A stretch of DNA of 64,000 bases from an uncultured Thermoleophilia bacterium (GCA_963699725.1 CAVOVA010000001.1:5836-69835), one strand, 5' to 3'. Counted from the stretch's first letter, positions 10,564 through 37,490 are shown. Program-made: numbers and translations. The notes: generated by a model not told the origin, from the sequence alone.

Positions 10564-11596
10564 CACTCCACCTCCCCCCGAACGCCGCCGAAGGCGGTGA
10601 GACGACCGCGGCCGGCAGGACGCCGTCCCGGCACGCGTCCCAGACCGCCGCCGCCATGTTGAGTGCGATCACGCGGCGCAATCCGACATACGACGTCGTC
10701 GGCCGCGGGTTGATCTCGATCAGCCAGCACGTCTCCCTGCCGAGTACCAGATCGACGCCGACATACCCACGCAGGCCGGGCACCAGGGCGACGGCCTTTC
10801 GCGCGAGCTCGCGTGCCTCCTCGCTTCGCGGGTGAGGCAACGAGGCGACCCCGCCATCGTACGCGAACGGCACCCCCGCTCGCACCCGCTGGCTGTTCAG
10901 ACTCAGCGCGATCGAACGCTCCTCGGCGACCAGCAGCGAGACGCTGGCCGCCTGACCCTCCACGTACTTCTGCACGAGCACGGAGGTCGCCGTGAGGAGG
11001 GCGGGCTGACGCAAGGCCCCTCCGAGCGCTGCTTGGTTCGCGGCCAGGCCGACGCCGTCGCACCCGGCGCCGTCGAGCGGCTTGACGACGACGGGGTAGC
11101 CGATAGACGCCGCGGCCGCCGCGGCGTCGGCCGGGACGACGCAGAGCGTCGCCGGCGTCGGCAGGCCGGCGCGCACGAAGCGGCGATGGCACTCCCACTT
11201 GTCCGCGGCGACGGCGACCGCCGCCGCCGGGCTGCCGAGAAGCGCGACGCCGGCGTCCGACAGAAGGTCGCTCACGCGTTCGAGCGCGCCCTCGCCCTCG
11301 GGGGCGACCACCAGCGCCGCTCCGCACTCGCGACCGAGCTCCAGCAGTGTTTCGAGGTACACTTCGGAGTCGACATCGACGATGCGATCGGCGTCCAGTC
11401 CCGGCGTCGGCAGACGCCGGTCGCGCGTGGTCACCACGGTGAATCTGCCCCACGACCGCAGGTCCGCCAGCAGGGCCCGCAAGAGGGCCAGGGCCTCCGT
11501 GGCGAGCCCGTTCGGAATGCGCGGCCCCGGCCATCCGCCGCCGGTGACGTACTCGTGCACGAGGATCGCTGAGGGGAGAGTCGACGTGGATGCCAT
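10553..11596 (-). CDS. mfnD: ATP-grasp ligase, MfnD-like (tyramine-L-glutamate ligase family)
   Basis: ILVHEYVTGGG N-terminus, PVVVKPLDGAGCDGV and WLIEINPRPTTS ATP-grasp blocks. Start is ATG 11596. Confidence 0.6.
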   Translation of the reverse strand: MASTSTLPSAILVHEYVTGGGWPGPRIPNGLATEALALLRALLADLRSWGRFTVVTTRDRRLPTPGLDADRIVDVDSEVYLETLLELGRECGAALVVAPEGEGALERVSDLLSDAGVALLGSPAAAVAVAADKWECHRRFVRAGLPTPATLCVVPADAAAAAASIGYPVVVKPLDGAGCDGVGLAANQAALGGALRQPALLTATSVLVQKYVEGQAASVSLLVAEERSIALSLNSQRVRAGVPFAYDGGVASLPHPRSEEARELARKAVALVPGLRGYVGVDLVLGRETCWLIEINPRPTTSYVGLRRVIALNMAAAVWDACRDGVLPAAVVSPPSAAFGGRWSDGP

Positions 11597-12347
11597 TCCG
11601 GTCCTAGACCTCATGGGAGGTCGAGTGGTGCAGGGCCTCCGCGGCGAGCGGCAGGCCTATCAGCCGGTGCGCAGTGCGCTGGTCGCGGGCTGCGATCCCG
11701 TGACCATCGCGCGGGCGCTGTGCGGCGCCTGCGGCGGCAAGGTCGTGTACATCGCCGACCTCGACGCCATCACGGGCACCGGCGACCATCTCGAGACCGT
11801 CGGGGAACTCGCCGACGGTCTCGGGGTTGAGCCCTGGGTTGACGCGGGCGTCAGCGGCGAGGAGGCCGCGGCCCGGCTGCTCGAGGCGGGCGCCGCGCGC
11901 GTGATCGTCGGCACCGAGACCCTCTCCGAGATCGGGGCGTTGCGCGGGCTTCGCGGCGCCCTGCCCGCGGGGCAGCTCATCGTCAGCCTCGACGTGGGCG
12001 CCGGCGGCGTGATCAGCAGGTGCCCATCGCTGCGCGGCCGTGCGCCGCTGGAAGCACTGGAGGTGCTCGTCGCCGAGGGCGTTGAAGACATCATCCTGCT
12101 CGCCCTGACCCAGGTCGGCACGGGAGCCGGGCCGGACGCCGGGACGCTGAGGGCGGCCCGAGCGGCGTTTCCACGGCTGCGCCTGGTCGCGGCCGGCGGC
12201 GTGCGCGACCCCGGGGACCTGCGTCTCCTCGCGGCGGCCGGCGCCGACGGCGTGCTGCTCGCGACGGCGCTTCATCGCGGCTGGATCACGCCGGCCGATA
12301 TCCGCGCGGCGCGGTCGGACGGTCGCTCGCTCACCAGCGGGCCGTGA
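11586..12347 (+). CDS. HisA/HisF-family (beta/alpha)8 barrel protein of the H4MPT-associated subgroup
   Basis: AIPVLDLMGGRVVQG...VYIADLDAI...AAGGVRDPGDL. GTG 11586 is preceded by GAGGGGAG. Confidence 0.7.
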   Translation: MDAIPVLDLMGGRVVQGLRGERQAYQPVRSALVAGCDPVTIARALCGACGGKVVYIADLDAITGTGDHLETVGELADGLGVEPWVDAGVSGEEAAARLLEAGAARVIVGTETLSEIGALRGLRGALPAGQLIVSLDVGAGGVISRCPSLRGRAPLEALEVLVAEGVEDIILLALTQVGTGAGPDAGTLRAARAAFPRLRLVAAGGVRDPGDLRLLAAAGADGVLLATALHRGWITPADIRAARSDGRSLTSGP

Positions 12348-13224
12348 GGGCGGGCACGTCGCCGAGCAAGCCGCCCTCCGTCAGAGCGACGAACAGCGAC
12401 GCCGCGATGAGGTCGGCCGTCGTGCCGGGGTTCAGCGCGTGAGCCTGATCGCCGAGCTCGGCAGACAGATCGCCGAGGCCGGCGCGTCCCGCGACGGTCG
12501 CGGTTCCTCCGGCGGCGAGGACGCGCGCCGCGCGTCGTGACACGTCCTCCGCCACGGCCACGCCGTTCTTGCGCGCGATCAGCGTGTCGGGGGTCTCGGC
12601 GAGGATCGTGAGGAACGCCGTCAGGACCGCCTCGGAGAACCTGGCGCCGTCGTCCCAGCAGCGCAGGACCGTTTCCGCGCCAAGCGTGAAGGTGAGCTGG
12701 AAATCGGTGACGTACTCACGGGCGATGGCATCGCGCTCGCGCGCTGCGTCCATGGCCTCCAGCAGGGTCACGCTGACCTCACGCTCGTGGACGTCGTGGC
12801 GGTCGGTCTCTCCCATGCCGGCGGGAGCGGCGGCCCGGATGGCCTCGTAAGCCAGGACCGCATCCCGCACCGTCAGCGATCTGAGGACCCCGGCCAGCTC
12901 CCGACGCAGGTCGCCTCCTCCGGCGGGCATACCCGCGGCGGCGTTCGCCAAGGGCGCGAGCAGCAGGATCAGCCCCAGATTGGTGTTGACGGCGACGAGA
13001 CGGCGCGTGTCGGCCGCGGCCCTGGCGATCGTCGCGCCCACCGCGGCCCTCCCGGCGTCGCGCAGCGCGGGACCGATCGCCACCGCGCTGGTCAGGAAGT
13101 CCTCGAAGCGCATGTCGGTGAAGGGGCTGCGTGGCGACACGTTCCCAGGCTTCTCGATGCTGGCCTCGAACAGGCACGCGAGCTGCGCCGCCCACGCGAT
13201 CTCGGCGCTCGTCAGCCGCTTCAT
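12331..13224 (-). CDS. Triphosphoribosyl-dephospho-CoA synthase (CitG/MdcB) family protein, H4MPT-cluster orf7-type
   Basis: LACLFEASIEKPGNVSP...NTNLGLILLLAPL...NPGTTADLIAASLF. ATGA overlap with the upstream mptN stop. Confidence 0.75.
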   Translation of the reverse strand: MKRLTSAEIAWAAQLACLFEASIEKPGNVSPRSPFTDMRFEDFLTSAVAIGPALRDAGRAAVGATIARAAADTRRLVAVNTNLGLILLLAPLANAAAGMPAGGGDLRRELAGVLRSLTVRDAVLAYEAIRAAAPAGMGETDRHDVHEREVSVTLLEAMDAARERDAIAREYVTDFQLTFTLGAETVLRCWDDGARFSEAVLTAFLTILAETPDTLIARKNGVAVAEDVSRRAARVLAAGGTATVAGRAGLGDLSAELGDQAHALNPGTTADLIAASLFVALTEGGLLGDVPALTARW

Positions 13225-14093
13225 GCGGACCCTTCGAGGACGTGGTCGACCAGGCACTGCGCGGCATCGACACCGGTGGCCGCGCGTAGCGCACGCCAGC
13301 CCGGGATCGTGTTGACCTCGATGACGCTGTACTCGCCGTCGTCGCCCGGGAGGATGTCGACGCCGGCGTGCTCGGCGCCCACGACCCGCGTCGCTCGCAG
13401 GCTCAAGGCGGCCACCCGATCATCCGGCTCGAACGGCTCCGCTTTGGCGCCCTGCGCCGCGTTCGTCTTCCAGCCGTCACCGCGGCGCATCATCGCCCCG
13501 ACGACGCGCTCGCCGACGACGAAGACGCGGATGTCCGCGTGGCCGTGAGGCACGAACTCCTGGAGGCAGTAGATGTAGCGGCCCAATTCGAGCGCGCGGA
13601 ACGCGCGGTACGCCGTGTCCGCGTCGGTGAGTCGTACGATGCCCCTGCCCTCGGAGCCGAACAGGGGCTTGACGACGACGTCGCCGCCGAGCGCTTCGTA
13701 GGCAGTCATGGCGTCTTCGAAGCGCTCGGCCACGATGGTGCGCGGCGTCGGCAGGCCGGCGTCGTGAAGCCTCGCGGAGGTGTAGTACTTGTCCACGCCG
13801 TGTTCGATGGCCGTCGCCGAGTTGACCACCCTCGCGCCGGAGTGCTCGAGCATGCGAAGGGCGTCCATGCGGAAGATGACCTGCTCCAGCGAGCCGGCCG
13901 GGATGGCGCGCACGAACACCACGTCGAACCCGTCCAGCGTGACGCCGCCGGCCGTGAGGCGTGGGCTGTGGTCGACGCCGGCGGTCAGCTGCATGACCGG
14001 GTAGCACTCCGTCTCGATGCCCCGGCGTGCCAAGGCCGAGCGGAGGCTCTCGGTGTGCCAGCCTCCCTTCTGGCCCAGGATGGCGGCCTTCAC
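13221..14093 (-). CDS. mptN: RimK-type ATP-grasp, tetrahydromethanopterin:alpha-L-glutamate ligase-like
   Basis: Part of ORF 13221-14573, from GTG 14093 (GTGA overlap with the mch stop). VVKPLFGSEGRGI and VIEVNTIPGW motifs. Confidence 0.75.
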   Translation of the reverse strand: MKAAILGQKGGWHTESLRSALARRGIETECYPVMQLTAGVDHSPRLTAGGVTLDGFDVVFVRAIPAGSLEQVIFRMDALRMLEHSGARVVNSATAIEHGVDKYYTSARLHDAGLPTPRTIVAERFEDAMTAYEALGGDVVVKPLFGSEGRGIVRLTDADTAYRAFRALELGRYIYCLQEFVPHGHADIRVFVVGERVVGAMMRRGDGWKTNAAQGAKAEPFEPDDRVAALSLRATRVVGAEHAGVDILPGDDGEYSVIEVNTIPGWRALRAATGVDAAQCLVDHVLEGSA

Positions 14094-15055
14094 GCGAAGA
14101 AGGACTGCCGGAGGACCTCCGGGTTCACTCCGCCGGCGCGGAAGGTGCGCCCGCTCGTCATGTTGGTGATCGTGACCTCCGCAGGGCTGAACAGCAGTGG
14201 GTCGATCTTGTAGAAGTCGTGGTCGTACCGCCGGAACAGCTCGCCGAAGGTGGTGCCGTAGTCCTTCGACGAGGCGGACGGAAGCTGCTCGATGATGCTC
14301 TCCACCTGCTCGTCGTCGGCCTGCACCGTGTACCAGGCGCGTCCTCCGTAGAGCACCCCGTCGTTCGTGCGGCCGATGGCGGTGAGGTCGTCGGCGGCGA
14401 TCGGCGCCAGCGGGCAGGAACCGAAGCCCGAGCGCAGTGTGCCGATGTCGAACCCCACCTCGTGCATCTTGTGGATGCCGGTCTCGACGACGCGCGCTGC
14501 GATCTGCACCGAGCCGACGATGCAGGCGGTGGGCGCCACCAGCAGGTGGAGCCTGTCCGGAGCCACGCCGCACTTCCCGGCGATCCAGTCGGTCGCCCCG
14601 AGCGGCGGCAGCGTTCTCGACTCCAGGGTGAGGACGGCGGCGTCCGCCGGATCGCGGTACTCGATGTCGGAGAAGATCGGGTCGCCCTGGTAGTGCGCCC
14701 GTGCCGGACCCGAGCCCATCGCGAAGTACGACTTGGTGTCGTCGGTCTTCGGTGTCTTCACGGCCCAGCCGGCGTACTGCGAGGCCATGCAGGCCACTAC
14801 CGGATGGCTCACGCCGACCTCGACGCCGGGCAGCGCCAGGTCATCAAGGTGAAGCTCACGCATCTGGACGCTGCCGAGGCCGCCGAGGCAGATCTCGGCG
14901 AAGAGGCGGCCGGCCGCGAGGGAGCCCCAGGCTTCGATGCCGCAATCGAGGACGGTGACGCCGTTCTCGTACTCCGAGACGGCGACGCCGTACGCCTCCT
15001 CGGCGTCCACGAGTCGCCGGCAGATGTCGCGCGCACGGTCGTTCACGCTAAGCAC
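14090..15055 (-). CDS. mch: Methenyl-tetrahydromethanopterin cyclohydrolase
   Basis: 321 aa. Full-length similarity, recalled, to Mch: VLDCGIEAWGSLAAG...SQYAGW...AMGSGPARA...GRTNDGVLYGG. Confidence 0.9.
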   Translation of the reverse strand: MLSVNDRARDICRRLVDAEEAYGVAVSEYENGVTVLDCGIEAWGSLAAGRLFAEICLGGLGSVQMRELHLDDLALPGVEVGVSHPVVACMASQYAGWAVKTPKTDDTKSYFAMGSGPARAHYQGDPIFSDIEYRDPADAAVLTLESRTLPPLGATDWIAGKCGVAPDRLHLLVAPTACIVGSVQIAARVVETGIHKMHEVGFDIGTLRSGFGSCPLAPIAADDLTAIGRTNDGVLYGGRAWYTVQADDEQVESIIEQLPSASSKDYGTTFGELFRRYDHDFYKIDPLLFSPAEVTITNMTSGRTFRAGGVNPEVLRQSFFA

Positions 15056-15896
15056 GGACCAGCACCTCCCCTCGGCCGCCCGTGTTCATGTCGCCGACAT
15101 AGCGCCGGAAGGTGTCGGCCGTGAGCGCCGTCTCCTCGAGCGAGCCGGAACTCCGCAGGGCGCGCAGGTAGGTCTGCAGGAACACGGGCCTGTACGTGCA
15201 GGCGTACGCGAACGTGGGGAGCATGGGCGGCGCCTCGCCGAAGGCGACGACGGTCCCACGCTTCATGCCGGCTCCGGGGCGTCCGCCGAGCCGGCCGCCC
15301 ACGAAGACAGAGCCGGCGAGCATGCCGGCGCCGGCGAACTCGCCGGAGTCACCGAGCACGACGATGAGGCCGCGTCGCATGCGGCCGCCGACCTCGCGGC
15401 CACACGAGCCCTTCACGATGATCGTCCCGCCGCGCATGCCCTTGGACTCGCCCGAGTACGCGGCGCCGGTGAAGTGGCCGGCGTTCCCCTCGATGACCAC
15501 CCGGCCGCCCGACATGTGGGCGCCGGCCCAGTCGCCGGTGCTGCCCTCCACGACGATCTCCCCGCCCTTCATGAACGCGCCGACGTGGGGGCCGGTGTCG
15601 CCCGCTACGGTGATGCGGCCGAACGTCATGCCGTAGCCGATCTTCTTGACGGCCTTGAGGTCGCCGCGCACGGTGATGTTGTCGGCGCCCGCGCCGTCGA
15701 CCGTGAAGAGGTCGCCCAGCTTCACCTGCCGGCGACCGTAGAAGACCGGCAGCGCCTCGATGTCCACCTGCCCGAGGCCGGCGAAGCGGTCCGGGCAGAT
15801 GCTGTCCGCCTCCACCGGGATCGTGCCCGGTTCCTTGCGCTCGAGCGTGATGCCGTCTCCTTCGAGCACGAGCGCCGCACAAGCTATGCATCCCAT
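15048..15896 (-). CDS. fwdC: Formylmethanofuran dehydrogenase subunit C
   Basis: 282 aa. Repeated G-x-x-G-x-x-M-x-GG-x-I-x-V-x-G beta-helix repeats (GAFMKGGEIVVEG, GAHMSGGRVVIEG, GMRGGTIIVKG). GAGGAGGAGG RBS. Confidence 0.85.
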   Translation of the reverse strand: MGCIACAALVLEGDGITLERKEPGTIPVEADSICPDRFAGLGQVDIEALPVFYGRRQVKLGDLFTVDGAGADNITVRGDLKAVKKIGYGMTFGRITVAGDTGPHVGAFMKGGEIVVEGSTGDWAGAHMSGGRVVIEGNAGHFTGAAYSGESKGMRGGTIIVKGSCGREVGGRMRRGLIVVLGDSGEFAGAGMLAGSVFVGGRLGGRPGAGMKRGTVVAFGEAPPMLPTFAYACTYRPVFLQTYLRALRSSGSLEETALTADTFRRYVGDMNTGGRGEVLVRA

Positions 15897-15942: not shown

Positions 15943-16830
15943 TCACGGGTTCACCAGCTCCCGCAGGGCGAAGTGGAACTGCCCCAGGGAGCCTCCGTAG
16001 TTGCCGGCCGAGATGCGCTTCACCCCGGGCAGGCAGGCCGCCGCGATGCCCACCCTCATCGCTTCCCGTACAGCCTCCTCATCCAGCCCGTCGATGACGA
16101 TCTCGAGGACGGCGTTCTCGCCGTCGCGCAGCGCCGTCTGCTCCTGGGCGCGCAGCGTCGGGCAGTACGGGGTGTTGCTCGACACGCCCTGGCCCTTGTA
16201 GCGGGACGAGACCTTGCTGCCGGAGCGCACCACGCCGCCGGGAAACGGCATGATGGCGCCGGGAACGGCGCGCATGGCGGCCACCGCCGCCTCCGCCGCC
16301 GCCAGCGACGCCTCGAGGGTCTCAGCCATCATGAAGAAGTTGCCGCCGCCGACGCTCTTGGTCACGCCGAAGCTCTCCTCCACGACGAACTCCCCGTCCA
16401 TGACCGGGACGCGCCACAGGCGGCGGCCGTCGAGCAGCTTGCTGCGCTGGAACCCGTCACCGAAGTAGCGCAGCTTGCCGCCGACCTTGAGCTTCTCGTC
16501 AGCGCCCAGTCCGTCGTAGCAGGCCGACGTCGGCGATGTCATGATCGCCTGTCCCACACGGGCCAGCAGCACCGCCTCCATGTTCTTGCGCGAGGTCGCG
16601 AACACGAGCACTGCGATGCCGGGCCGGCCGTCGGGGGTCGTCTCGTCCGCAGCGAGCTCGTTGACGCCCGCCTCGCAGCCGCAGCCGATGATCGACGTGG
16701 CGAAGCCCGTCGCCGCCGCAGCCGCCGTGTGCGCCCACTCGGACGATTCCGCGGTCACGATGAGGCGTGATCCCCACATGCCGAAGGCCTCGGCGAAGGT
16801 GTCCTCTATCTCCACTCCGTTGACGTGCAT
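15943..16830 (-). CDS. ftr: Formylmethanofuran:tetrahydromethanopterin N-formyltransferase
   Basis: 295 aa. N-terminal VEIEDTFAEAFGMWGSRLIVTA, plus FATSIIGCGCEAG and MPFPGGVVRSGSKV, typical of Ftr/FhcD. Confidence 0.9.
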   Translation of the reverse strand: MHVNGVEIEDTFAEAFGMWGSRLIVTAESSEWAHTAAAAATGFATSIIGCGCEAGVNELAADETTPDGRPGIAVLVFATSRKNMEAVLLARVGQAIMTSPTSACYDGLGADEKLKVGGKLRYFGDGFQRSKLLDGRRLWRVPVMDGEFVVEESFGVTKSVGGGNFFMMAETLEASLAAAEAAVAAMRAVPGAIMPFPGGVVRSGSKVSSRYKGQGVSSNTPYCPTLRAQEQTALRDGENAVLEIVIDGLDEEAVREAMRVGIAAACLPGVKRISAGNYGGSLGQFHFALRELVNP

Positions 16831-20386: not shown

Positions 20387-22018
20387 TCAGCCGCAGGCGA
20401 CGGTCTCGGTACACGAGTCCTCGTCGGCCAGCATGGCGTAGTTGTCGTACGAGACCGTGTAGGCTGCTTTGAAGTGGGCGCGCATGTCGTCCTCGATCCG
20501 CGGGTCGTACTCCGGGGCCACCGAGAAGGTGCGCCCCGAGACCTGCTTGAGGACCACGCCGTCGCGGGCCACGAGCTCGCCGCCCTTGTACACGTACCGC
20601 GGCCGGGCGAACATCGCCTCCTTGTCGTCCTGCTCCTCGTACACGGCGATGTCCGCGTCGGCGCCGACGCCGAGGTGCCCCTTGTCCTTCAGACCGAGGG
20701 TTCGGGCGGGACCCGCGCGAGTGATGACGGCGATGTCGCTGAGCGAGTACTCCCGGTCCAGCTCGGCGAGCACCGATCCGTTGCGCGCACGCGCGTGCAC
20801 CGAGGCGAGCATCTCCGCGCGGTAGCCGCGGTCCATGAGCAGGCGGATGATCTGCGGGTAGTTGCTGAAGGTGCCCGCATTGGGGTGGTCGGTCGTCAGG
20901 AACACCTTCCACGGGTCGTCGATGAGGAGGTAGAGCTCCAGGCCGGTGACCCACATGGTCGCGTTGATGGGGTTGCCTGGTGCATAGACGATCGGCACGA
21001 TGCCGCCCCCCGATTCGCCCTCGACGTCGTCGTTCATCCAGCGCCCGCCGGCGGTGTTGTGCAGGTTGTGCTGCAGCGGTCCGTCGCAGGTCATGGTGGT
21101 GGCCCGCCCGAAGACGACCTGGCCGACGTCGACGGTCAGCCTGGGGCTGGCGTTGACGGCCTCCGCGACGGCGACCGCCTCGGACTTGTGCACGTGGCCC
21201 TTGCCGGCGCCGTAGCTGAGGAACTGCAGGTGGCAGAGGTGCGCGCGGTGGCCGTCCAGCGCCTTGATCGTCTCGATGCTGGTGCGGGCGCTCGTGTGCC
21301 GGCCGAGGTTGATGCCGTGGATGTGGACGGCGTGGGGGAGCTCGAGGTCGTCGGCGATCGTCGCCAGGGTCTCCATGATCTGGCGTGGGGTGACGCCGTA
21401 GCCGATGACCTCGTCGTCGAGCTCGGAGACGTTGCTGCCCCACTTCCAGTTCTCGACGCCGCCTGGGTTCACGATCTTGATCGCGTAGCCCTCGCTCGCC
21501 CGCAGCAGCCAGGCGACGTAGTCCTTGGCGCGATCGAACTGCTTGTCGGCGATGCTCTGCATCACGAAGTGGTTGTTGCCCATCACCATGAAGGCGCCGT
21601 TGTCGAGGTTGGGCGTGTCCTCGAGTTCCTCGTGCGTGTGCCGCGCCATCAGCGGTGCGGTCGACGCCTGCATCACCGTGGTGTAGCCGAGCTCGGAGTA
21701 CAGCTGCCCGGTGGCGTAGGTCGAGGGCACCGTGCCCCCGGCGCCCGCCCTCAGCGCTGCGGAATGGGTGCGCTCGTACCCCCGATGATCCTCCGGGCGC
21801 AGCTTGCGGCCGGCGTTGACCTCTCCGCCGACGATGTGCGCGTGGATGTCCACGCCGCCGGCCATGACCACCAGCCCGGCGGCGTCGACGATCTCCGCGT
21901 GCTCGCGGTCGATCTCCTCGGCCGCCACGATGCGACCGTCCTTCACCCAGATGTCGCCGATCTCTCCGGCTTTGCTGTTCTGCGGGTCGTAGACCCGTCC
22001 ACCTATGATGCCCAGCAT
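20387..22018 (-). CDS. fwdA: Formylmethanofuran dehydrogenase subunit A (amidohydrolase)
   Basis: Lower part of ORF 20387-23245, from ATG 22018 (TGATG junction with fwdB). GGVDIHAHI metal motif and HAVHIHG. Confidence 0.9.
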   Translation of the reverse strand: MLGIIGGRVYDPQNSKAGEIGDIWVKDGRIVAAEEIDREHAEIVDAAGLVVMAGGVDIHAHIVGGEVNAGRKLRPEDHRGYERTHSAALRAGAGGTVPSTYATGQLYSELGYTTVMQASTAPLMARHTHEELEDTPNLDNGAFMVMGNNHFVMQSIADKQFDRAKDYVAWLLRASEGYAIKIVNPGGVENWKWGSNVSELDDEVIGYGVTPRQIMETLATIADDLELPHAVHIHGINLGRHTSARTSIETIKALDGHRAHLCHLQFLSYGAGKGHVHKSEAVAVAEAVNASPRLTVDVGQVVFGRATTMTCDGPLQHNLHNTAGGRWMNDDVEGESGGGIVPIVYAPGNPINATMWVTGLELYLLIDDPWKVFLTTDHPNAGTFSNYPQIIRLLMDRGYRAEMLASVHARARNGSVLAELDREYSLSDIAVITRAGPARTLGLKDKGHLGVGADADIAVYEEQDDKEAMFARPRYVYKGGELVARDGVVLKQVSGRTFSVAPEYDPRIEDDMRAHFKAAYTVSYDNYAMLADEDSCTETVACG

Positions 22019-23286
22019 CAGCTCACCGCCTCGATGATCCGGTCGAGGACGTCCTCGTCGGTCGGACGATCCGTCGAGATGACCTGCTTCAGGGGGATCG
22101 GCACGTTGTCCATGCGGTAGGCCGTGCCGCTGGCGTCGACGCCGTAGGCCGCCGTCGGGAAGAGGACCTTGGCCTTCGCGGCCACCACGCTCGGTCCGTG
22201 GTCGAAGACGATCGTCGGGATGCTGTCGAGGTGCGCCGCGGCGGCGGCCGGGAAGTGCGCGCCCGGGTCGGAGGCGATGATCACGGCGGCGTCGGCGGCC
22301 TTGCGCGCCAGCATGTCGACCGCGGTGAACTCGCCCGGCATGAACAGCGGATAGCCGCGCGCGAAGCTGACGGCGAACGGGTAGCCCGTGGTCCACGTGA
22401 GTACCTGGTCGGCGCCGGTGACGTTGCCGTGTCCCCGCATGGGGATGACCGAGAACTTGGCGTGGTTGTTCAGTTCGGCCACGAGGGTGAACAGCTCCGC
22501 GACGTTGAGCTGGCGCGCGGGCGCCATGGTGAGGCCCATGCCCATGAAGGCGACTCCGTAGCGGCACGACTTCATGCGCTCGGCCAGCTCCTTGAGCTCC
22601 GTCACCGGGACGCCGCCGACCACGTCGGCCGACGGCTCGCCGCCCCGCACCAGCAGGCGCAGGGTGGACAGCACTTCGTAGTCGCTGCCGACCTCGATCT
22701 GAAGGAAGTGATCGGCCTTCTTCGAACTGCCTGTGGGCCGCACGTCGACCACGTACATCACGCGGTCGGCGCGTCCGTTGGGGGTGAGCGCGCCTTTCGC
22801 GGTCAGCGAGAAGCGCGGAAAGTGGCGCAGGTGCGAGGCGTCGGGGTTGCAGCCCCAGAACACCACGAGGTCGGCCCGGTCGCGCACCTCCCCCAGCGTG
22901 CAGGTGGGCTCGCCGACCGCCTGCATGGCGAGCCCCGTCGGACCGTGACAGACCGACGATGTGGAGTCGATGACGGCGCCGATCTTGTCGGCGAGCGCGA
23001 CTGCCTTGCGCTGTGCCTCGCTCGCCGACGAGCTGAGCCCGTAGATCAGAGGGCTGTCGGCTGCCGAGAGGATGCTCGCCGCCTCGGCGACGGCTTCGTC
23101 CCACTCCACCTCGCGGCCGTCGACAAGCGGCCGGCGCGAGCGTGGATCGTAATCCATGAAGATGCCCTGTCCGCTGGAACAGGCGAGCTTGACCTTGAGG
23201 ATCTCGTTGTCCTCGGTCTCCACTTTCAGGTCGTCGCACAGGCATCCGCAGAACGGGCAGGCGACGTTCTCGATCGTCGTACTCAC
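22018..23286 (-). CDS. fwdB: Formylmethanofuran dehydrogenase subunit B (Mo/W-pterin binding, Cys type)
   Basis: 422 aa. N-terminal CPFCGCLCDD Fe-S motif and DSTSSVCHGP putative metal-ligand Cys. GTGA overlap with the fwdD stop. Confidence 0.85.
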   Translation of the reverse strand: MSTTIENVACPFCGCLCDDLKVETEDNEILKVKLACSSGQGIFMDYDPRSRRPLVDGREVEWDEAVAEAASILSAADSPLIYGLSSSASEAQRKAVALADKIGAVIDSTSSVCHGPTGLAMQAVGEPTCTLGEVRDRADLVVFWGCNPDASHLRHFPRFSLTAKGALTPNGRADRVMYVVDVRPTGSSKKADHFLQIEVGSDYEVLSTLRLLVRGGEPSADVVGGVPVTELKELAERMKSCRYGVAFMGMGLTMAPARQLNVAELFTLVAELNNHAKFSVIPMRGHGNVTGADQVLTWTTGYPFAVSFARGYPLFMPGEFTAVDMLARKAADAAVIIASDPGAHFPAAAAAHLDSIPTIVFDHGPSVVAAKAKVLFPTAAYGVDASGTAYRMDNVPIPLKQVISTDRPTDEDVLDRIIEAVS

Positions 23287-23636
23287 GTCGAGACCTCCTC
23301 GCCGGGCAGCGGTGTCACGTCGACCTTGAGCCCCTTGAAGCAGGGCATGCCCGTGCCCAGCGTCTCCGTGCCGATGAGCTTGTTGGCCATGGTCCCCATG
23401 GGGACGAACACCAGGCCGGCCGGCACGGTGCCGGCGCGGGCCGTGAGCTCCGCCTCGCCGTCCGCCGTGCGCAGCAGCACCTGCCCGCCTTCGCTGACCT
23501 CGAGGCGGGTCATGTCGTCGGGGTTCATCTCCACGAGCGCGGTGGCTGCGAGATACTCGGCGGAAGCCTTGCCCTTGTGCATCCCGATGGCCTGCTTACG
23601 CGTACGCCCGGTGATCAAGGTGAGTGGGTCGCTCAC
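23283..23636 (-). CDS. fwdD: Formylmethanofuran dehydrogenase subunit D (molybdopterin-dinucleotide-binding beta-barrel)
   Basis: ORF 23283-23702. Start set at GTG 23636 (GGGAGGAG 4-5 nt upstream). LITGRT...MNPDDMTRLEVSEGGQV...FVPMG. Confidence 0.75.
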   Translation of the reverse strand: MSDPLTLITGRTRKQAIGMHKGKASAEYLAATALVEMNPDDMTRLEVSEGGQVLLRTADGEAELTARAGTVPAGLVFVPMGTMANKLIGTETLGTGMPCFKGLKVDVTPLPGEEVST

Positions 23637-24789
23637 GGCTCTCCTCCCTTCGCTCTTCGCTCTCTTCGTGCGCTTGCCCCGCGCGTGCGAGGAGGTCTGC
23701 AAGGCATTCCCGCCGGTCGCGGGACCGCGTCACGACGGTGCATATCGGGTGACCCTTGGCGATCGCCTGCCGGCTGCGCGGCACGTCTCTCACGCCGCGC
23801 GCCAGCCAGGCGTCGGTGTCGGGGGTCGTCACCTGGCGGCGTGCGTAGACGATCGCCTTGCCGAAGAACCCGGGAACGAGCGGCTGCACGACGTCCGCGT
23901 CCGGCAGCTGCCCGGCGCAGGCGTCCACGTGGGCGCTGAAGACGTTGGCGCCGCAGGCATCCTCCAGCAGCTCCATAGAGCCGCTGTAGCGGGGGTTGAC
24001 CTCGATCACGTGCGGGCGCACGATGCCTCTCTGATCCCTGCCGACAACAACATCCATGCCGTTGACGCCTCTCAGGCCAAAGTGCCGCGTGAGCGTGCGC
24101 GCCGCGTGGCGGATCTCCGCGATCACGGTGTCTGACTCCGCAGCGGAGAGGTCGACGGGGTGGATGTTGCCGCACCATCCGAACCCCGAGCTCCCCAGAG
24201 CGGCTAGCCCGATGAGCTGTTCGCTGAGACCGAGGATGCGGCAGTCACGGCCGTCGGCGACGAACGCCACCGACGCGGGCAGTCCATCCACCTCGGATTG
24301 TAGCACGTGGTCCGCGTCGAGCAGCGTCCCGTCCCAGTGTCGCACGCCGTGCCCGCCGCCGCTCCGCACGCGCTTGCGCAGCCAGCGGCCTGGCCCGGCT
24401 TCGGCCTCCTCGCCGGGCAGGAGTGTGACGGGATACGCGATGCCGGATCCTTCGCACACACGTCGCAGCAGCGCCCAGTCCCTGACCTCGAGCAGCACCT
24501 CCGGCGGGTTGCCGAGCACCTCGCACTCGCTCGCGAGTCCTGCCACGACCTCGGCGTGATTCTCGAGGTTGGCGCCGTACACCACGGCGTCCGCGGCGAC
24601 CCGCCGCGCGGCCTGTCCCAGCCCTTCGGCGTTCAACGCCAGCCCGAGGTCGCGTCCCAGAGCGTAGGTCTCGGCCAGGAGGACCTGGTCGCGGTCGGCG
24701 AAGAAGTCAACGGCGACCACGTCGTGGCCGCCGCGGATGGCGGCCGCCGTCATGGCGCGCGTGCTGACAGCGAGGACGAGGATGCGCAC
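23596..24789 (-). CDS. ATP-grasp protein of the H4MPT-associated carboligase-like family (orf17-type)
   Basis: Part of ORF 23596-25077, from GTG 24789 (VRILVLAVS). VIEVNPRYSGSMELLE ATP-grasp block. The 3' end overlaps the fwdD start by 41 nt. Confidence 0.65.
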   Translation of the reverse strand: MRILVLAVSTRAMTAAAIRGGHDVVAVDFFADRDQVLLAETYALGRDLGLALNAEGLGQAARRVAADAVVYGANLENHAEVVAGLASECEVLGNPPEVLLEVRDWALLRRVCEGSGIAYPVTLLPGEEAEAGPGRWLRKRVRSGGGHGVRHWDGTLLDADHVLQSEVDGLPASVAFVADGRDCRILGLSEQLIGLAALGSSGFGWCGNIHPVDLSAAESDTVIAEIRHAARTLTRHFGLRGVNGMDVVVGRDQRGIVRPHVIEVNPRYSGSMELLEDACGANVFSAHVDACAGQLPDADVVQPLVPGFFGKAIVYARRQVTTPDTDAWLARGVRDVPRSRQAIAKGHPICTVVTRSRDRRECLADLLARAGQAHEESEERREESRERPTHLDHRAYA

Positions 24790-25649
24790 TAGCCGGCCAG
24801 CTCCTTGGCGCTCTCCATGATGCCCTCGGCGTCGAGGACGAGGTCGTTGCGCTCGAAGAGGCGGGCGATGGAGCGCTTGTGCACCTTCATCTTGAGATCG
24901 CCGATCCCCAGCGCACCGAAGAGCAGCTTGTCGCCGATCTCCTTGCCGTTCCAGGTCGCCTTGGTGCCCTCGACGCCCAGTGGCGGCACCGCGTTGACGT
25001 CGGCGAGCACGCGGAGCGTCGGGTGCTCCTGCCACAGAGCCTCGGGTACGAGCTGGACACCCTCGACGCCCGTGCACACGACGGCGCAGGCGCCCTCGAG
25101 CGCGGTGGCGGTCGTGCTCTCGTCGGCGGCGACGGCCGGCATCACGTCGGCGCCGAAGCGATCCTTGACGACGGCGCAGGCCGCTTCAGCGCGTTCGATG
25201 GTGCGCGAGGTGAGGGTCACGTGGGCGCCCTCGGCCGCGAGGAGCCCGGCCGCTCGCTGTCCCACGGGGCCGGTCCCCGCCAGCACCACGACCTTCTGTC
25301 CGCTCACCGGCACCGACGAGATCACCTTGACGACGGCGGCCGCCGCGGTGGTGTTGCAGCCGTTGGAGTCGAGCATGACGGAGACGCGCAGCGGGTCGAA
25401 GAACGAGCCGACCGCCTCGCGAAGGATCGCCTCGCCCTTGGCAACGTCGATGCCGCCGATGAAGACGGCCGTGTTCTTGAGATCGGCGGGGCCGCGCGTG
25501 AACATGGCGCCGTAGACGAGGTCGCGCACCTCGCCGGGCTCGATGCCGCCGTACTGCAGGAGCGCGTCGATGCCGGCGTCGTAGGCCGTCACCGCGTCGA
25601 ACACGGCAGCGACGCGGTCGCTGTCGAACTGGATGAGGATCTTCTGCAT
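24789..25649 (-). CDS. NAD(P)-dependent methylene-tetrahydromethanopterin dehydrogenase (MtdA/MtdB family)
   Basis: 286 aa. KILIQFDSD...VFIGG...VVVLAGTGPVGQRAA Rossmann motif. AAGGAGG RBS. Confidence 0.85.
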   Translation of the reverse strand: MQKILIQFDSDRVAAVFDAVTAYDAGIDALLQYGGIEPGEVRDLVYGAMFTRGPADLKNTAVFIGGIDVAKGEAILREAVGSFFDPLRVSVMLDSNGCNTTAAAAVVKVISSVPVSGQKVVVLAGTGPVGQRAAGLLAAEGAHVTLTSRTIERAEAACAVVKDRFGADVMPAVAADESTTATALEGACAVVCTGVEGVQLVPEALWQEHPTLRVLADVNAVPPLGVEGTKATWNGKEIGDKLLFGALGIGDLKMKVHKRSIARLFERNDLVLDAEGIMESAKELAG

Positions 25650-27902: not shown

Positions 27903-28523
27903 TCACTCGGGACGGCCTGCGAGAAGCCGCGTTACTTCTACCAGACGGTCGACAACCTTGTGGATGGCGTCCAGGCCCACCTCGTCTGCCTGCACGCCGG
28001 CCGCGCCCTTGTCACGCGACCAGACGGCGGCGCCGAGATTGGCGCCGAAGGCGCCGCCGCCCACGGGGATCATCTCGTTGATGAGGTAGAATCCCGCGAT
28101 CGTCAGCAGCGTCGGCTCCTGACCCCCGCTGCGGTCGCCACCGACGGCGATGCCTGTCCCCACCTTGCCGCGAAACACCCCTGGTTCGCTGGCGACAACG
28201 GCCCGGCAGCGGTCGAGGATCGTCTTGAGCTGGCCGCTGATCTGGCCCTGGTACACCGGCGTGCCGAGGATCCAGGCGTCGGCCCATTTGAGCTTCGAAT
28301 ACAGATCTTCCATGTCGTCCTTGAAGGCGCACCCCTGTCGCTTGCGGATGCAGGCGTCGCAGTGCACGCAGAACCCGATGGTCTTGCGATGGGCGCTGAA
28401 GTAGTCGACGCTCGCGCCGTGCTGCTCTTGAGCGTGCCGGAGCGCCTCGTTCACTGCGAAGTCGGTGGCCTTTCGGCGTGAGCTTCCCGAGATGCCGAGA
28501 AGTCTGATGCCGCTCTCGTTCAT
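27903..28523 (-). CDS. Iron-sulfur flavoprotein (Isf-like NADPH-dependent FMN reductase fold)
   Basis: Part of ORF 27903-28793, from ATG 28523. LLGISGSSR flavodoxin-like start. Compact CVHCDACIRKRQGC (CxxCxxCx6C) motif as in Methanosarcina Isf. Confidence 0.7.
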   Translation of the reverse strand: MNESGIRLLGISGSSRRKATDFAVNEALRHAQEQHGASVDYFSAHRKTIGFCVHCDACIRKRQGCAFKDDMEDLYSKLKWADAWILGTPVYQGQISGQLKTILDRCRAVVASEPGVFRGKVGTGIAVGGDRSGGQEPTLLTIAGFYLINEMIPVGGGAFGANLGAAVWSRDKGAAGVQADEVGLDAIHKVVDRLVEVTRLLAGRPE

Positions 28524-28668: not shown

Positions 28669-29409
28669 TTACTCTGCGGCCTTGTTCTTGATCCCCGAGA
28701 TGTAGTCGTACAAGAAGGCGGCGATGAGACCGCCGGCGATCGGGCCGATGATGTAGATGGGGAAGTTGCCCCAATCGGCGATCGACGCTCCATCCGCGGC
28801 CTTGCCGCCGTACAGCGTCTCGACCAGGTAGGGACCGAAGGAGCGCGCCGTGTTCATCGAGGCGCCGGCGATCGGGCCGGTGACGATGATGTCCGCCGCG
28901 ACCACGATACCGATCGCGACGCCGGCGAAGCCGCTCGGCGCCCGGCTGTCCACGGCGGAGCCCCAGATGACGAGCACCAGGAAGGCGGTGGTCACGAGTT
29001 CGACGAGGATCGCCTGCCAGTAGCTCACGTCTGCGCCCGGCGCGGTGATGCCGAGACCCGCGTCGACCGCTCGCTGCCCCCAGATCCAGACGATCACGAG
29101 GGATGCCGCGGCGGCGCCGATCAGCTGCGCGATCACGTAGTAGATCATGTCCTTGGCCGGGAAGCGGCCGGTGGCCCACAGGGTGATGCTCACCACAGGA
29201 TTGATGTGCGTGCCCGAGATGTGCCCAAAGGCGTAGATCATGACCAGGACGGCGAAGCCGAAGGCGAGGCCGATCAGGAGCAGGCCGGCCATGTCGGGCC
29301 CCTCGAAGACCGTGACCATGGTCACGACGGAGCCGGTGCCCAGGAACACGAGCACGAAAGTACCGATCAACTCCGCGAGAGCCCGCTTCGCGAGGGTGGG
29401 TTGTGGCAC
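28669..29409 (-). CDS. MIP-family channel (aquaporin/glycerol-facilitator fold) with non-canonical NPA boxes
   Basis: 246 aa, six hydrophobic segments. First box HISGTHINPVVS (NPV), second box GASMNTARSFGP (NTA). GGAGGTGA RBS before GTG 29409. Confidence 0.85.
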   Translation of the reverse strand: MPQPTLAKRALAELIGTFVLVFLGTGSVVTMVTVFEGPDMAGLLLIGLAFGFAVLVMIYAFGHISGTHINPVVSITLWATGRFPAKDMIYYVIAQLIGAAAASLVIVWIWGQRAVDAGLGITAPGADVSYWQAILVELVTTAFLVLVIWGSAVDSRAPSGFAGVAIGIVVAADIIVTGPIAGASMNTARSFGPYLVETLYGGKAADGASIADWGNFPIYIIGPIAGGLIAAFLYDYISGIKNKAAE

Positions 29410-29531: not shown

Positions 29532-31064
29532 TCAGACGGCCACGTTCCACTGGCAGTAGCCCACTGAGCCGGAACCACGGCCCGTCGCCATCGGGACGTT
29601 CCTCTTGATGAGGGCGCAGGTAGCGCAGTCCTTGCAGGCACGGACCGGGGCGCCCGGCGTGCCGGGAGCGACCGCGATGGCATTGGTCATGAGGGTCGCG
29701 GTGGTGCACTCCGGCGTGAGGAAGCAGGGGAAGTCGGACAGCGTCATCAGGGCAGCGAAGCGCTGGGTGATGGCGCAGGCCGGATACGTGTAGCGCTGCG
29801 GGTTGCTGATCACGTCGTTGCTGTCGACGGTGCTCAGGTCGACCGCGACGCCCTTGACCTTGCCGCCGGCGCCGATCGGCTTGATGTCGAGGATGGCCTC
29901 GCCGCGCTTGAGGATGTCCATGAAGTCGACGTTGTGCAGCTCGTCGGCCTCGCCGCGGTCCGGATGCATGGCGGCGTAGTTGTGGAAGCGCTTGTTGAGC
30001 AGGTCGATCACCATCGGGACGGTGAAGCTGTCCTTCCACAGGATGTACGCCGTGGCGCAGGCCGTCGAGCCGGTGGCGACGGAGAGCACGTCGTACGGGC
30101 TCTTGAAGGCATCGGCCTTGAGGGCGGCGTTCAGCGTGTTCTCGAGCACGCCGGTGACGGCCTCGTAGATCGCGAACACCATGTCGTCGTTGAACATGTT
30201 GTAGGCCGACTGCGCGATGTGGTGGGCGACGTCGCCGACGCAGTACGCGGGGACGGCGGTGATGTTGGCGTAGTGCACGCCGGCCTTCATCGCGGCGACG
30301 ATGGTCGGGCGCATCTTCTCTTTGTAATCCGCCATGTACTTGCTGACGTCGAACGAGCTGTGCGGGCCGTGGCCACCGAGGTTATGCGTGGCCATGAGCT
30401 GCGCCTGAGCGGCGGACGGCTCGCGGTACACGAACTGCAGCATGTCGACCTCGGCCTGCTCGGCGTCGGCCAGGGTCTTGCCCGACTCGACGGCGGCGCG
30501 GAACGCGCCGGCGAGGCCGTAGGAGGTGTTCATGCCCCACGACTTGCAGGCGAGGATGGTCTTCTTGTGGTCGGCCGGGATGTCCAGGGGAACCAGGATC
30601 TGGTTCACGAGGTTCGGCACCGAGCCGACCGACATGGCGAAGTCGACGACACAGGTGGGGCCGTACATGCCGCCGTAGCGACGCGCGGCCTCCATGCCGA
30701 CGAGGGCCTTGTTCGCCGCGATGGCGTCGATGAACTTCCACATCGAAGCCTTGAACGCGGGATCCTCTTCGTACATGATCTCGAGGATCGGCGGCGTCTG
30801 ATAGTGCTCGACGAACGGATCGTCCTCGGGACGTACGGTGTCGGTGAGGGACGTCATGACGTCGAAGTGAGCGTTCACGGACTTCACGTGCAGGTCGATG
30901 ACTTCCTGCGACTGCCCCTCATAGGCCGTCATCTTGTTCACGGCGTCGACGTACGGCTTCGCGTCCGTCACCTTGAAGGTACCACCGCGGTTGGCCTTGT
31001 TGACGCCGAATACCGCTTTGGTGGCGCCCACTGCCTCGGTTATCATCTTCTCGTAAAGCGACAT
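29532..31064 (-). CDS. Hypothetical 510-aa Cys-rich protein, no family recognised
   Basis: Long ORF with GGAGG 5 nt before the ATG and composition like its neighbours. No Rossmann, P-loop, CxxCH, radical-SAM or DxHxxG motif seen. Seven Cys in the last ~85 aa (YPACAI, FPCFLTPEC, ACKDCATCA, GYCQW). Confidence 0.8.
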   Translation of the reverse strand: MSLYEKMITEAVGATKAVFGVNKANRGGTFKVTDAKPYVDAVNKMTAYEGQSQEVIDLHVKSVNAHFDVMTSLTDTVRPEDDPFVEHYQTPPILEIMYEEDPAFKASMWKFIDAIAANKALVGMEAARRYGGMYGPTCVVDFAMSVGSVPNLVNQILVPLDIPADHKKTILACKSWGMNTSYGLAGAFRAAVESGKTLADAEQAEVDMLQFVYREPSAAQAQLMATHNLGGHGPHSSFDVSKYMADYKEKMRPTIVAAMKAGVHYANITAVPAYCVGDVAHHIAQSAYNMFNDDMVFAIYEAVTGVLENTLNAALKADAFKSPYDVLSVATGSTACATAYILWKDSFTVPMVIDLLNKRFHNYAAMHPDRGEADELHNVDFMDILKRGEAILDIKPIGAGGKVKGVAVDLSTVDSNDVISNPQRYTYPACAITQRFAALMTLSDFPCFLTPECTTATLMTNAIAVAPGTPGAPVRACKDCATCALIKRNVPMATGRGSGSVGYCQWNVAV

Positions 31065-31180: not shown

Positions 31181-31384
31181 CTACTCGAGCACCTCTTTGC
31201 ATTCCGCGCAGAGGATGCGCGGCAGCTTCTTCCGGGACTTCTTGTTCGGGAACGGGTAGCCGCCCTCCCAGAAGTCGACATCCTCACGGAGCGCGTGATC
31301 CATGCAGAGACCCATGCCGCACACGATACAGATGCCGACCGCCTCGGTCTGCTTGCCGGCCTTCGCGCACACATAACACTGCAT
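31181..31384 (-). CDS. DUF2180-like small zinc-ribbon protein
   Basis: 67 aa from ATG 31384 (GGAAGGAGGG RBS). MQCYVCAKAGKQTEAVGICIVCGMGLCMDH...CAEC, giving three CxxC pairs. Resembles archaeal DUF2180 proteins as I recall them. Confidence 0.6.
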   Translation of the reverse strand: MQCYVCAKAGKQTEAVGICIVCGMGLCMDHALREDVDFWEGGYPFPNKKSRKKLPRILCAECKEVLE

Positions 31385-36368: not shown

Positions 36369-37490
36369 TCAGGGGCGCCGGCGACCCAGCCCGAGCGTCT
36401 CTACGAGGCAGGCGGCGACGCCGGCGGCGTCATCGAGCGCGAAGCGGCGACGGTGGGGAAGATCGGTGTCGGTCACGACCGCGAGCAGTTCCTCGGGCGA
36501 ATACTTCGTCTCCGCGTACCCCGCAGCGCCGCGCACGACCTCGATCACGTGCGTCGTCTCGTGCCGATAGCCTTCGCAGACGACGATGTCGTAGCCGGAG
36601 AAGTACCGCTCGGCGAGCTCGGCCAGGGTCGTGGTCTCCCGCTGCGTGGTCACGAAGGCGAACTGCGCCGGCGAACCCACCGCGTAGGCCTCCGCGCCGG
36701 CCTGACCGTGACGCCAGGAGTCCTTGCCGGGGGTGTCGATGTCGAAGTGGGCGACGCTCTTGATCGCCCCCACCGTGTAGCCGAGACCGACGAGCTCGGG
36801 GATCAAGCGCTCGATCAACGTCGTCTTGCCGCTGTTCGGCCGCCCGACGACGCCGATCACGACCGGCGGCCCGGGTTCGGCGGTCTCCACGGCGGCACGC
36901 TGGCGGCGGCGAGCCTCCTCCCAATCGTCCGGGGAGTTCACGTTGAAGAACGGCTCTGCGCGCGAGAAGGGCACGGTCCGCACGCGCACCTCAGGCAGCA
37001 GGTCCAGGAGGCTGTGCGCGCCCCGGTCGAGAAGGCTCTTCAGGTGCGGCGCGCAGGCTGGGCCGTACACGGCGTGCAGGGGCTCCAGGTGGTCGCCGAC
37101 GATCGGCAACGCCACATCCACGCCGTCGAAGGCCGCGACGACGCGCTCGACGGTCGCGCGCTCGGGGAACGCCACGTCGGCGGCGAGAGTGAAGATGGGT
37201 TCGTGGTAGCGGGCCAGGAGGGAAGCGAGCCCCGCAAGCGGCGAGCCCGTCACCACGTCGGTCACGGTCTCCACACCGGCGGGCAGTGACGCCGGGATCT
37301 GGGCGGCGTCACGCACCGAGAGCGCGACCGTCGGGAAGAGGTCGCCGAGAAAGACCAGATTGCGCTCCAGAAGTGTGGTCCCGGCGAGACGCAGCAGACG
37401 CTTGTCGCGCCCCATACGCCTTGCCTCGCCACCGGCGAGGAGGGCGCCGACGCGGATACGTCGCGGGGTTCTCGAGAGGTCGATGGTCAC
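36369..37490 (-). CDS. Fused MobA (molybdenum cofactor guanylyltransferase) - MobB (MGD biosynthesis adapter, P-loop)
   Basis: N-terminal LLAGGEARRMGRDK MobA motif. C-terminal half has VVGRPNSGKTTLIERL, the MobB P-loop. Single 373-aa ORF from GTG 37490. Confidence 0.8.
   Translation of the reverse strand: MTIDLSRTPRRIRVGALLAGGEARRMGRDKRLLRLAGTTLLERNLVFLGDLFPTVALSVRDAAQIPASLPAGVETVTDVVTGSPLAGLASLLARYHEPIFTLAADVAFPERATVERVVAAFDGVDVALPIVGDHLEPLHAVYGPACAPHLKSLLDRGAHSLLDLLPEVRVRTVPFSRAEPFFNVNSPDDWEEARRRQRAAVETAEPGPPVVIGVVGRPNSGKTTLIERLIPELVGLGYTVGAIKSVAHFDIDTPGKDSWRHGQAGAEAYAVGSPAQFAFVTTQRETTTLAELAERYFSGYDIVVCEGYRHETTHVIEVVRGAAGYAETKYSPEELLAVVTDTDLPHRRRFALDDAAGVAACLVETLGLGRRRP

Follow-up and report, generated by a model that had tools for sequence, protein, structure and literature searches.

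Among the closest described relatives of the gene set treated here are two enzymes of methanofuran (MFR) chemistry: the archaeal, CO2-reducing tungsten formylmethanofuran dehydrogenase (Fwd) of M. wolfeii (FwdABCDFG, PDB 5T5I), and the metal-free complex of the methylotroph Methylorubrum extorquens (FhcABCD, PDB 6S6Y; PMC6926001), which releases formate. In the latter, the B subunit (FhcB) has Ser62 in the place of the ligand Cys118, has lost His119 and Arg288 together with the N-terminal [4Fe-4S] domain, carries clashing loops and is not accompanied by a FwdD (Hemmann 2019, PMC6926001). Here, we compare with both systems the genes fwdDBA and ftr-fwdC, encoded in a 64-kb stretch of DNA (64,000 nucleotides, hereafter the window; GCA_963699725.1 CAVOVA010000001.1:5836-69835) from an uncultured soil Thermoleophilia bacterium (Actinomycetota). 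We estimate at about 70% (a value that blends the confidences in the separate parts) the probability of our overall reading, in which these genes encode a redox-active, molybdenum- or tungsten-bis-pterin (Mo/W) formylmethanofuran dehydrogenase that works oxidatively and docks Ftr, the formyltransferase; the enzyme looks like a hybrid, in which an archaeal-type Fwd is combined with Fhc-like features of Ftr and of the scaffold subunit (FwdC). All coordinates are positions in the window, and (-) and (+) denote the strand.

The gene type is not new, as it has already been published in bacteria and is correctly annotated by standard pipelines, and in this respect our finding is confirmatory. Clusters that retain fwdD are known from Synergistetes, Firmicutes and NC10, while Proteobacteria and Planctomycetes no longer have the gene (Chistoserdova 2016, PMC5020050), and a survey of the MopB proteins counted 149 bacterial FwdB versus 94 FhcB, argued for a transfer from Archaea and recorded that part of the bacterial FwdB set is devoid of the ligand Cys (Wells 2023, PMC10100899). 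Actinobacteria from the Hakuba serpentinite encode fwdDBA-ftr-fwdC without fwdEFG and keep both the Fe-S (iron-sulfur) domain and Cys118 (Merino 2020, PMC7325909). They thus resemble the window in phylum, gene order, missing fwdE/fwdF/fwdG, Fe-S domain and Cys118, and differ from it in that their genomes reportedly lack the methanopterin biosynthesis genes, whereas the window has the whole set plus a DUF2180-DUF2193-MIP-Isf module. A previous annotation made without database searches (the sequence-only reading) had held Fhc to be the usual type in bacterial clusters for tetrahydromethanopterin (H4MPT); this is true of the model Proteobacteria and Planctomycetes, and is contradicted by the fwdD-bearing clusters published from elsewhere (PMC5020050, PMC7325909). 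As a description of redox-type Fwd, 'unusual for bacteria' is overstated.

The argument for a redox enzyme centers on two translationally coupled genes. The first, fwdD (23283..23636, -), encodes a 117-aa molybdopterin-dinucleotide-binding 'domain IV' cap; it starts with GTG at 23636, behind the ribosome-binding site AGGGAGGAG, and stops at 23283, where its TGA shares a GTGA overlap with the GTG start of fwdB (with GAGGAGG upstream). The second, fwdB (22018..23286, -), encodes the predicted catalytic subunit (422 aa, N-terminal [4Fe-4S] domain), which would bind Mo/W-bis(pyranopterin guanine dinucleotide), as judged from solved structures, the TIGR03129 model and the alignment; its stop overlaps the ATG of fwdA as TGATG. 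The sequence-only reading had placed both genes and their coupling correctly. It had also named the product of fwdD rightly: the domain IV cap is present as a separate gene (as in M. wolfeii), with a match to Pfam PF01568 (2e-13) and, between 2e-18 and 8e-14, to archaeal FwdD chains of known structure (2ki8, 8rja_D and 5t5i_D at 2e-18 to 6e-15).

FwdB was compared with all PDB sequences (HMMER alignments to solved structures) and, by pairwise BLASTP, with the FwdB of M. wolfeii. The best match was 8rja_B of 'Candidatus Ethanoperedens thermophilum' (3e-119; the corresponding FwdD match was 3e-17), followed by 5t5i_B (4e-118), by three other archaeal FwdB/FmdB (3e-105 to 9e-91) and, far behind, by M. 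extorquens FhcB (6s6y_B, 9e-12). At the sequence level, values of ~1e-118 exclude a similarity by chance. The alignment to FhcB opens only at FwdB residue 56, hence FhcB has no counterpart of the N-terminal domain. To M. wolfeii FwdB the protein is essentially collinear and 45% identical; of the 423 aligned positions 7 are gaps, six of which fall near residues 47-58, and the pterin-binding core, judged from the gap positions alone, has zero gaps versus 5t5i_B. Both motifs highlighted by the sequence-only reading ('ACPFCGCLCDD' at the N-terminus and 'DSTSSVCHGP') were found. C10, C13, C17 and C36 align with the cluster ligands Cys9, 12, 16 and 35 of 5t5i_B, while C113 ('SSVCHGP') aligns with the tungsten ligand Cys118 and with the selenocysteine ('X') of 9sfi_Q, which confirms the proposed Cys/Sec ligand segment. 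H114 and R284 ('PMRGH') align with His119 and Arg288. Conservation of the ligands against M. wolfeii also bears out the contrast with FhcB drawn by the sequence-only reading, since the defects described for FhcB are all missing from the window protein.

Thus, the FwdB and FwdD sequences together make up what is predicted to be a complete formate-dehydrogenase-like module ([4Fe-4S] motif, Cys ligand, catalytic His/Arg and domain IV cap). One might go further and assign to FwdBD the main role of a free formate dehydrogenase or of a CO2 reductase for the cell, only loosely tied to methanofuran chemistry, given that the two proteins structurally amount to a split formate dehydrogenase and that weak matches to FdhF and FdhH were recorded. 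We deem this extremely improbable: fwdD, fwdB and fwdA are translationally coupled, fwdDBA invariably occur together with ftr, fwdC, mch and mtd, and the family models separate the two functions, FwdB scoring 530 bits against the equivalog TIGR03129 (cut-off 328) and 65 bits against the Fdh-alpha model (cut-off 666; NCBIfam). FwdA and FwdC likewise exceed the equivalog cut-offs of TIGR03121 and TIGR03122, and database names and standard models already call FwdB 'formylmethanofuran dehydrogenase subunit B'.

The comparative evidence comes from 80 related loci, fetched from species-representative genomes (out of at least 544 matching stretches) and annotated with the window proteins. A seven-position signature (the four cluster Cys, the ligand Cys, the His and the Arg) reads CCCCCHR in 76/76 complete FwdB with an adjacent fwdD; in one further fwdD-adjacent copy (L067) only the N-terminal end is missing, through extraction. 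The hosts of the intact signature comprise Thermoleophilia and other Actinomycetota, Anaerolineales/Chloroflexota, Syntrophobacteraceae, Desulfocapsa, Synergistaceae, Gammaproteobacteria, Gemmatimonadota, Planctomycetota and two archaea, and the identity to the query ranges from 98% down to 44%. Of the 90 aligned FwdB-like sequences, 88 have the four Fe-S Cys, and the remaining pair (L031 and L067) is N-terminally incomplete by extraction. Ten tandem second fwdB copies, all without fwdD and all from Gemmatimonadota or Gammaproteobacteria (L049 16844-18136; L051, L055-L057, L060, L062, L063, L072, L074), have A, S, G or M for the ligand Cys, have lost the His and have G for the Arg, although they are full length and still possess the four Fe-S Cys. 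They belong to a second set arranged as fwdB'-fwdA'-ftr'(-fwdC'), and the sequence of FwdB' appears to stand midway from FwdB to the truncated M. extorquens FhcB. Since the signature is intact with fwdD and lost without it, a functional Mo/W site appears to be under selection, and we regard the strict co-variation of fwdD with Cys/His/Arg as the strongest computational argument for a functional FwdBD site in the window. At one Acidobacteriota locus (L078 9980-11293, from a metagenome-assembled genome, MAG), where no fwdD was detected, FwdB has the ligand Cys and the Arg, with Gln for the catalytic His.

The same data bear on the view that the window encodes an Fhc-like formyltransferase/hydrolase that releases formate, with FwdB and FwdD acting mainly as scaffold and with a vestigial or regulatory metal site. 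The Fhc features that the locus shares (ftr beside fwdC and an FhcC-type C-terminal insertion, see below) and the lack of an encoded dedicated electron-transfer subunit would fit such an enzyme. A bystander site would, however, hardly be kept so strictly: in at least seven phyla, at 45-98% identity, all seven residues (ligand and catalytic) and a separate fwdD gene are retained with no exception; relaxed selection is seen precisely in the fwdD-less second copies, with Cys/His/Arg lost, and the FwdB alignment, judged by its gap positions, shows no pterin-core insertions, while FhcB has clashing loops (PMC6926001). We therefore consider the hydrolase very unlikely, and a redox-type Fwd highly probable. 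By every sequence comparison made, the window enzyme belongs to the redox Fwd family: FwdB keeps the Fe-S domain, ligand Cys, His and Arg whose loss typifies the B subunit of Fhc, and fwdD, without a homologue in Fhc, is there and coupled to fwdB, yet the predicted Ftr-docking features of Fhc are shared. The genuine Mo/W dehydrogenase put forward by the sequence-only reading is well supported by the ligands, by FwdD and by the 76/76 signature, and it is the metal, the direction and the electron partner that we infer. A reliable sequence determinant for Mo versus W was considered and none was found.

The Fhc-like side of the hybrid concerns the remaining subunits. fwdA (20387..22018, -) encodes a 543-aa amidohydrolase, predicted to form or cleave formyl-MFR (Pfam Amidohydro_3 1e-50; TIGR03121 693 bits), that matches 5t5i_A at 1e-138 and FhcA (6s6y_A) at 7e-111, and has, at motif level only, candidates for a binuclear-metal site (HAH59-61, K181, HIH232-234, H263 and D377). 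ftr (= fhcD; 15943..16830, -) encodes the formyl-MFR:H4MPT formyltransferase (Pfam FTR 2e-58, FTR_C 2e-60), matching 1ftr_A at 2e-91 and FhcD (6s6y_D) at 2e-87. It lies immediately upstream of fwdC, as fhcD adjoins the C-subunit gene in the H4MPT cluster of M. extorquens (likewise a bacterial host); among the fetched loci ftr adjoins fwdC in the bacterial ones, usually between fwdA and fwdC, and is missing from the archaeal L077 and L079. In M. wolfeii, unlike here, ftr is not part of the set.

fwdC (15048..15896, -) encodes a 282-aa beta-helix scaffold (GXGXG Pfam match) with an Fhc-type insertion at ~235-255, supported by alignments and by an AlphaFold2 (AF2) model. Only FhcC (6s6y_C) aligned over the full length (residues 25-281 vs 8-263), whereas the alignments to five archaeal FwdC chains end near residue 233 (M. 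wolfeii FwdC, 1e-42). In a multiple alignment, the 21-25-residue segment (query ~235-255, 'YRPVFLQTYLRALRSSGS') is common to FhcC and the sampled bacterial FwdC and deleted in the archaeal ones, M. wolfeii included, and the AF2 model (mean predicted local distance difference test, pLDDT, 91.8) places a helix at 238-249. In FhcC, a helix-loop-helix at residues 216-246 is the platform that binds the formyltransferase FhcD (Hemmann 2019, PMC6926001), and the end-to-end alignment of the window protein includes it. Whole-model Foldseek was uninformative as a discriminator between Fhc and Fwd (template modelling score 0.88 to 6s6y_C vs 0.85 to 5t5i_C), the local C-terminal alignment being the informative test. 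A formyltransferase encoded with the complex and a C-subunit insertion, both hallmarks of Fhc, are thus found here as gene order, insertion and predicted helix, from which the docking itself would follow; we somewhat favor the docking of Ftr on FwdC. The sequence-only reading had passed over ftr and fwdC as ordinary neighbors, and missed that the complex also carries these Fhc-like features.

We reason that FwdA, FwdB, FwdC, FwdD and Ftr may form one formyltransferase/dehydrogenase complex, a five-subunit arrangement suggested by the local FwdC insertion and synteny. Ftr would move the formyl group from formyl-H4MPT to a (possibly tethered) methanofuran, FwdA would hydrolyse formyl-MFR, and the formate would be passed by channelling to FwdBD for oxidation to CO2. 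The two low-potential electrons would leave via the [4Fe-4S] cluster of FwdB and, given that FwdF and FwdG are not encoded, would go straight to a soluble carrier, most probably ferredoxin. The net role would be the oxidation of methylene-H4MPT to CO2 (through Mtd, Mch, Ftr and Fwd) with no free formate, and with the last step saved as low-potential reductant.

The electron exit differs from that of the solved archaeal enzymes. The sequence-only reading had noted that the operon has no FwdE, FwdF or FwdG, and no FmdE/FwdE, FwdF or FwdG-like open reading frame (ORF) was found in the window, unlike in M. wolfeii with its FwdF polyferredoxin and FwdG, and the 'Ca. Ethanoperedens' enzyme is, by its entry name, F420-reducing, so that it has a dedicated electron output with no counterpart here. 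An ORF with two CxxCxxCxxxC motifs beside fwdDBA was found neither in the window nor in the bacterial loci, only in the archaeal L077 and L079. FwdF and FwdG are not universal, since four-subunit FwdDBAC sets were reported in archaea (cited in PMC7325909). Thirteen gammaproteobacterial MAG loci continue fwdD-fwdB-fwdA-ftr-fwdC directly with genes for a small Fer4 ferredoxin and for a pyridine-nucleotide flavoprotein of FprA-like type (loci with this continuation: L049-L053, L061-L062, L064-L066, L068 at 11223-11558 and 11638-13035, L069, L071 and L073). This pair is likely an electron-output module of the bacterial Fwd and suggests a route Fwd -> ferredoxin -> NAD(P)+, which points to ferredoxin as the acceptor of the bacterial enzyme; the aldehyde:ferredoxin oxidoreductase encoded in the window makes a ferredoxin pool plausible.

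A scan of the window for ferredoxin motifs, made in search of an electron partner, returned only the beta subunits of AhtL-like oxidoreductases and one small ORF, none of them linked to fwd. The latter (~2258-2476, +) has one complete CxxCxxCxxxCP motif and is immediately followed by a nitroreductase-family gene (2522-3214, +). A candidate partner within the cluster is the Isf-like Fe-S flavoprotein (27903..28523, -; FMN_red 5e-30), whose CxxCxxCx6C motif aligns with that of 7d38_A and whose gene stays with the cluster in loci of Thermoleophilia, Syntrophobacteraceae and Anaerolineae. It belongs to an archaeal-type module that heads the H4MPT/Fwd cluster and includes DUF2180 (31181-31384, -; a 67-aa Cys-rich protein), DUF2193 (29532-31064, -; 510 aa, PF09959 746 bits) and a MIP channel (28669-29409, -). 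A 2025 paper showed Fe-S cluster binding by DUF2193 and its link to MIP in methanogens (PMC12375889). It adjoins mtd-fwdDBA in ~27/80 loci (Thermoleophilia, Anaerolineales, Syntrophobacteraceae, Synergistaceae and Desulfocapsa), is ~75% identical between Actinomycetota and Synergistaceae (and so more conserved than FwdB), and its loci do not overlap with those carrying Fae among the 80. The module might supply the missing one-carbon (C1) entry or the electron partner. As a structural lead DUF2193 yielded nothing, its AF2 model (pLDDT 72) having no Foldseek match in the PDB at E <= 0.001.

Regarding direction, we hold oxidation to be likely, because the methylene-H4MPT dehydrogenase (mtd, 24789..25649, -; Pfam Mpt_N 2.5e-31 plus NAD(P)-binding domains) is of the Mpt_N family, to which the bacterial MtdA/MtdB, both NAD(P)-linked, belong, because Mer and CODH/ACS (CO dehydrogenase/acetyl-CoA synthase) are missing from the 64 kb, and because Fae lies beside the orthologous operon in other phyla. 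The Mtd also sets the bacterial host of the window apart from M. wolfeii, in that it is neither F420- nor H2-dependent. The sequence-only reading had considered it possible that the enzyme works reductively, and such a redox-active Fwd would load CO2 onto methanofuran with reduced ferredoxin, feeding H4MPT-type C1 assimilation or a Wood-Ljungdahl-like route. FwdBD chemistry is reversible, archaeal enzymes (among them the M. wolfeii Fwd, which reduces CO2) are the nearest in sequence, a possible role in growth on CO was proposed for actinobacterial fwdABCD (Merino 2020, PMC7325909), and the aldehyde:ferredoxin oxidoreductase implies a low-potential ferredoxin metabolism. Nevertheless, we judge this unlikely, and the earlier suggestion found no support: the window encodes no Mer, Mtr, CODH/ACS or F420-dependent Mtd, the Mtd present is of the bacterial family, and related aerobic-type lineages pair fwdDBA-ftr-fwdC with Fae, indicating formaldehyde oxidation. 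Moreover, the top structural relative (8rja) works oxidatively and generates CO2 (PMC11493965), in likeness to the enzyme proposed here.

Several observations weigh against an oxidative Ftr-FwdABCD dehydrogenase. The direction cannot be read from the sequence, as Fwd is reversible, and the window yielded neither Fae (tblastn) nor another source of methylene-H4MPT. The operon and its flanks are devoid of ferredoxin, FwdF and FwdG (the window's only small ferredoxin-like ORF is ~20 kb off), and the Fe-S proteins of the cluster (Isf-like and DUF2193) are without assigned roles. The putative docking of Ftr would follow from one insertion and the gene order only, and Foldseek does not clearly assign FwdC to FhcC, since archaeal chains have better E-values. 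Literature searches for biochemical work on any bacterial Fwd found genomic mentions only. Readings other than those discussed retain just a sliver of probability.

The fwdDBA and ftr-fwdC genes are part of an operon of ~20 kb that serves C1 transfer and the biosynthesis of H4MPT/MFR. The window (G+C ~69%) has its closest relatives among Thermoleophilia MAGs; L001 and L002 encode a FwdB that is 97-98% identical. The cluster is a nearly unbroken (-) gene run from ~31.4 kb down to ~9.5 kb, in which DUF447 is the sole (+) gene. Its order is DUF2180, DUF2193, MIP channel, Isf-like Fe-S flavoprotein, AfpA, beta-RFAP-synthase-like GHMP kinase, (DUF447, +), Mtd, ATP-grasp, fwdD, fwdB, fwdA, MptA, DUF6513/pterin-binding protein, DUF1464, ftr, fwdC, mch, RimK-like ligase and CitG-like, followed by further ATP-grasp and hydantoinase-like genes. 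In most related loci, mtd lies directly upstream of fwdD. The methenyl-H4MPT cyclohydrolase is encoded by mch (14090..15055, -; Pfam MCH 1.5e-122), and the methanopterin biosynthesis set comprises MptA, beta-RFAP synthase, AfpA, ATP-grasp ligases and the CitG-like gene. Several ATP-grasp/RimK-type ligases, a hydantoinase-like and a CitG-like gene are embedded in the cluster at 9475-14090 (-) and 23596-~24789 (-); all of them may serve to build the glutamyl tails of methanofuran and H4MPT, and hence bear on a possible tethering of MFR like that in Fhc.

The genes of Mo/W supply that the sequence-only reading had adduced are all real: modABC (31877-~34870), an upstream molybdenum cofactor (Moco) riboswitch (34877-35007, -; RF01055, 44 bits vs a 36-bit cut-off) and a fused mobA-mobB for bis-molybdopterin guanine dinucleotide synthesis (36369..37490, -; Pfam NTP_transf_3 and MobB). 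As evidence for the metal content of Fwd they are weak, because three other Mo/W enzymes share the window and the supply genes are not attributable to Fwd. The riboswitch, whose P3 region has a 37-nt insert versus 13 nt in the model, sits in the mechanically called modA ORF (33993-35036), so that the true modA start must lie downstream of 34877. The other enzymes are an AhtL-like (pyrogallol-hydroxytransferase-like) molybdopterin oxidoreductase with its beta subunit (4199-6868 / 3372-4199, -), a paralogous pair (37695-40295 / 40256-41125, +; the beta subunits have Fer4_11 and CarboxypepD_reg domains) and, after this second pair, a W/Mo aldehyde:ferredoxin oxidoreductase (41168-43057) followed by an IclR regulator. 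MoaF is encoded as well. The AhtL-like pair and the aldehyde:ferredoxin oxidoreductase suggest an anaerobic aromatic or aldehyde metabolism.

In an evolutionary perspective, we put forward tentatively, as a possibility that falls somewhat short of an even chance, that the five-subunit Ftr-FwdABCD formyltransferase/dehydrogenase is an undescribed living intermediate between the archaeal Fwd and the bacterial Fhc, widespread in anaerobic and soil bacteria. The docking of Ftr (and perhaps a tethered methanofuran) would already have been gained, while the formyl group would still be oxidised to CO2 at a Mo/W center and the electrons would go straight to a soluble ferredoxin-type acceptor without FwdF/FwdG. 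The fwdD-less copies of Gemmatimonadota and Gammaproteobacteria, with Fe-S Cys kept and Cys/His/Arg lost, might then represent the next step towards Fhc, giving a proposed order of Ftr docking, loss of FwdD and of the catalytic residues, and loss of the Fe-S domain. This evolution is probably also treated by Adam et al. (Nat Microbiol, 2019).

What deserves experiments, in our view, is the Fwd/Fhc hybrid architecture together with the apparent intermediates in their series, as they offer a concrete and testable series for the origin of the metal-free methylotroph Fhc from the archaeal Fwd. A bacterial Fwd free of FwdFG would also be a compact candidate for the engineered capture of CO2 as formamide. 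If the enzyme is active, H4MPT-linked C1 oxidation would be finished at about -530 mV, with the electrons kept as reduced ferredoxin and not lost as free formate, and the assumed energetics of formaldehyde and methyl oxidation would change for the Thermoleophilia of soil and peat, as well as for Chloroflexota, Synergistota and others.

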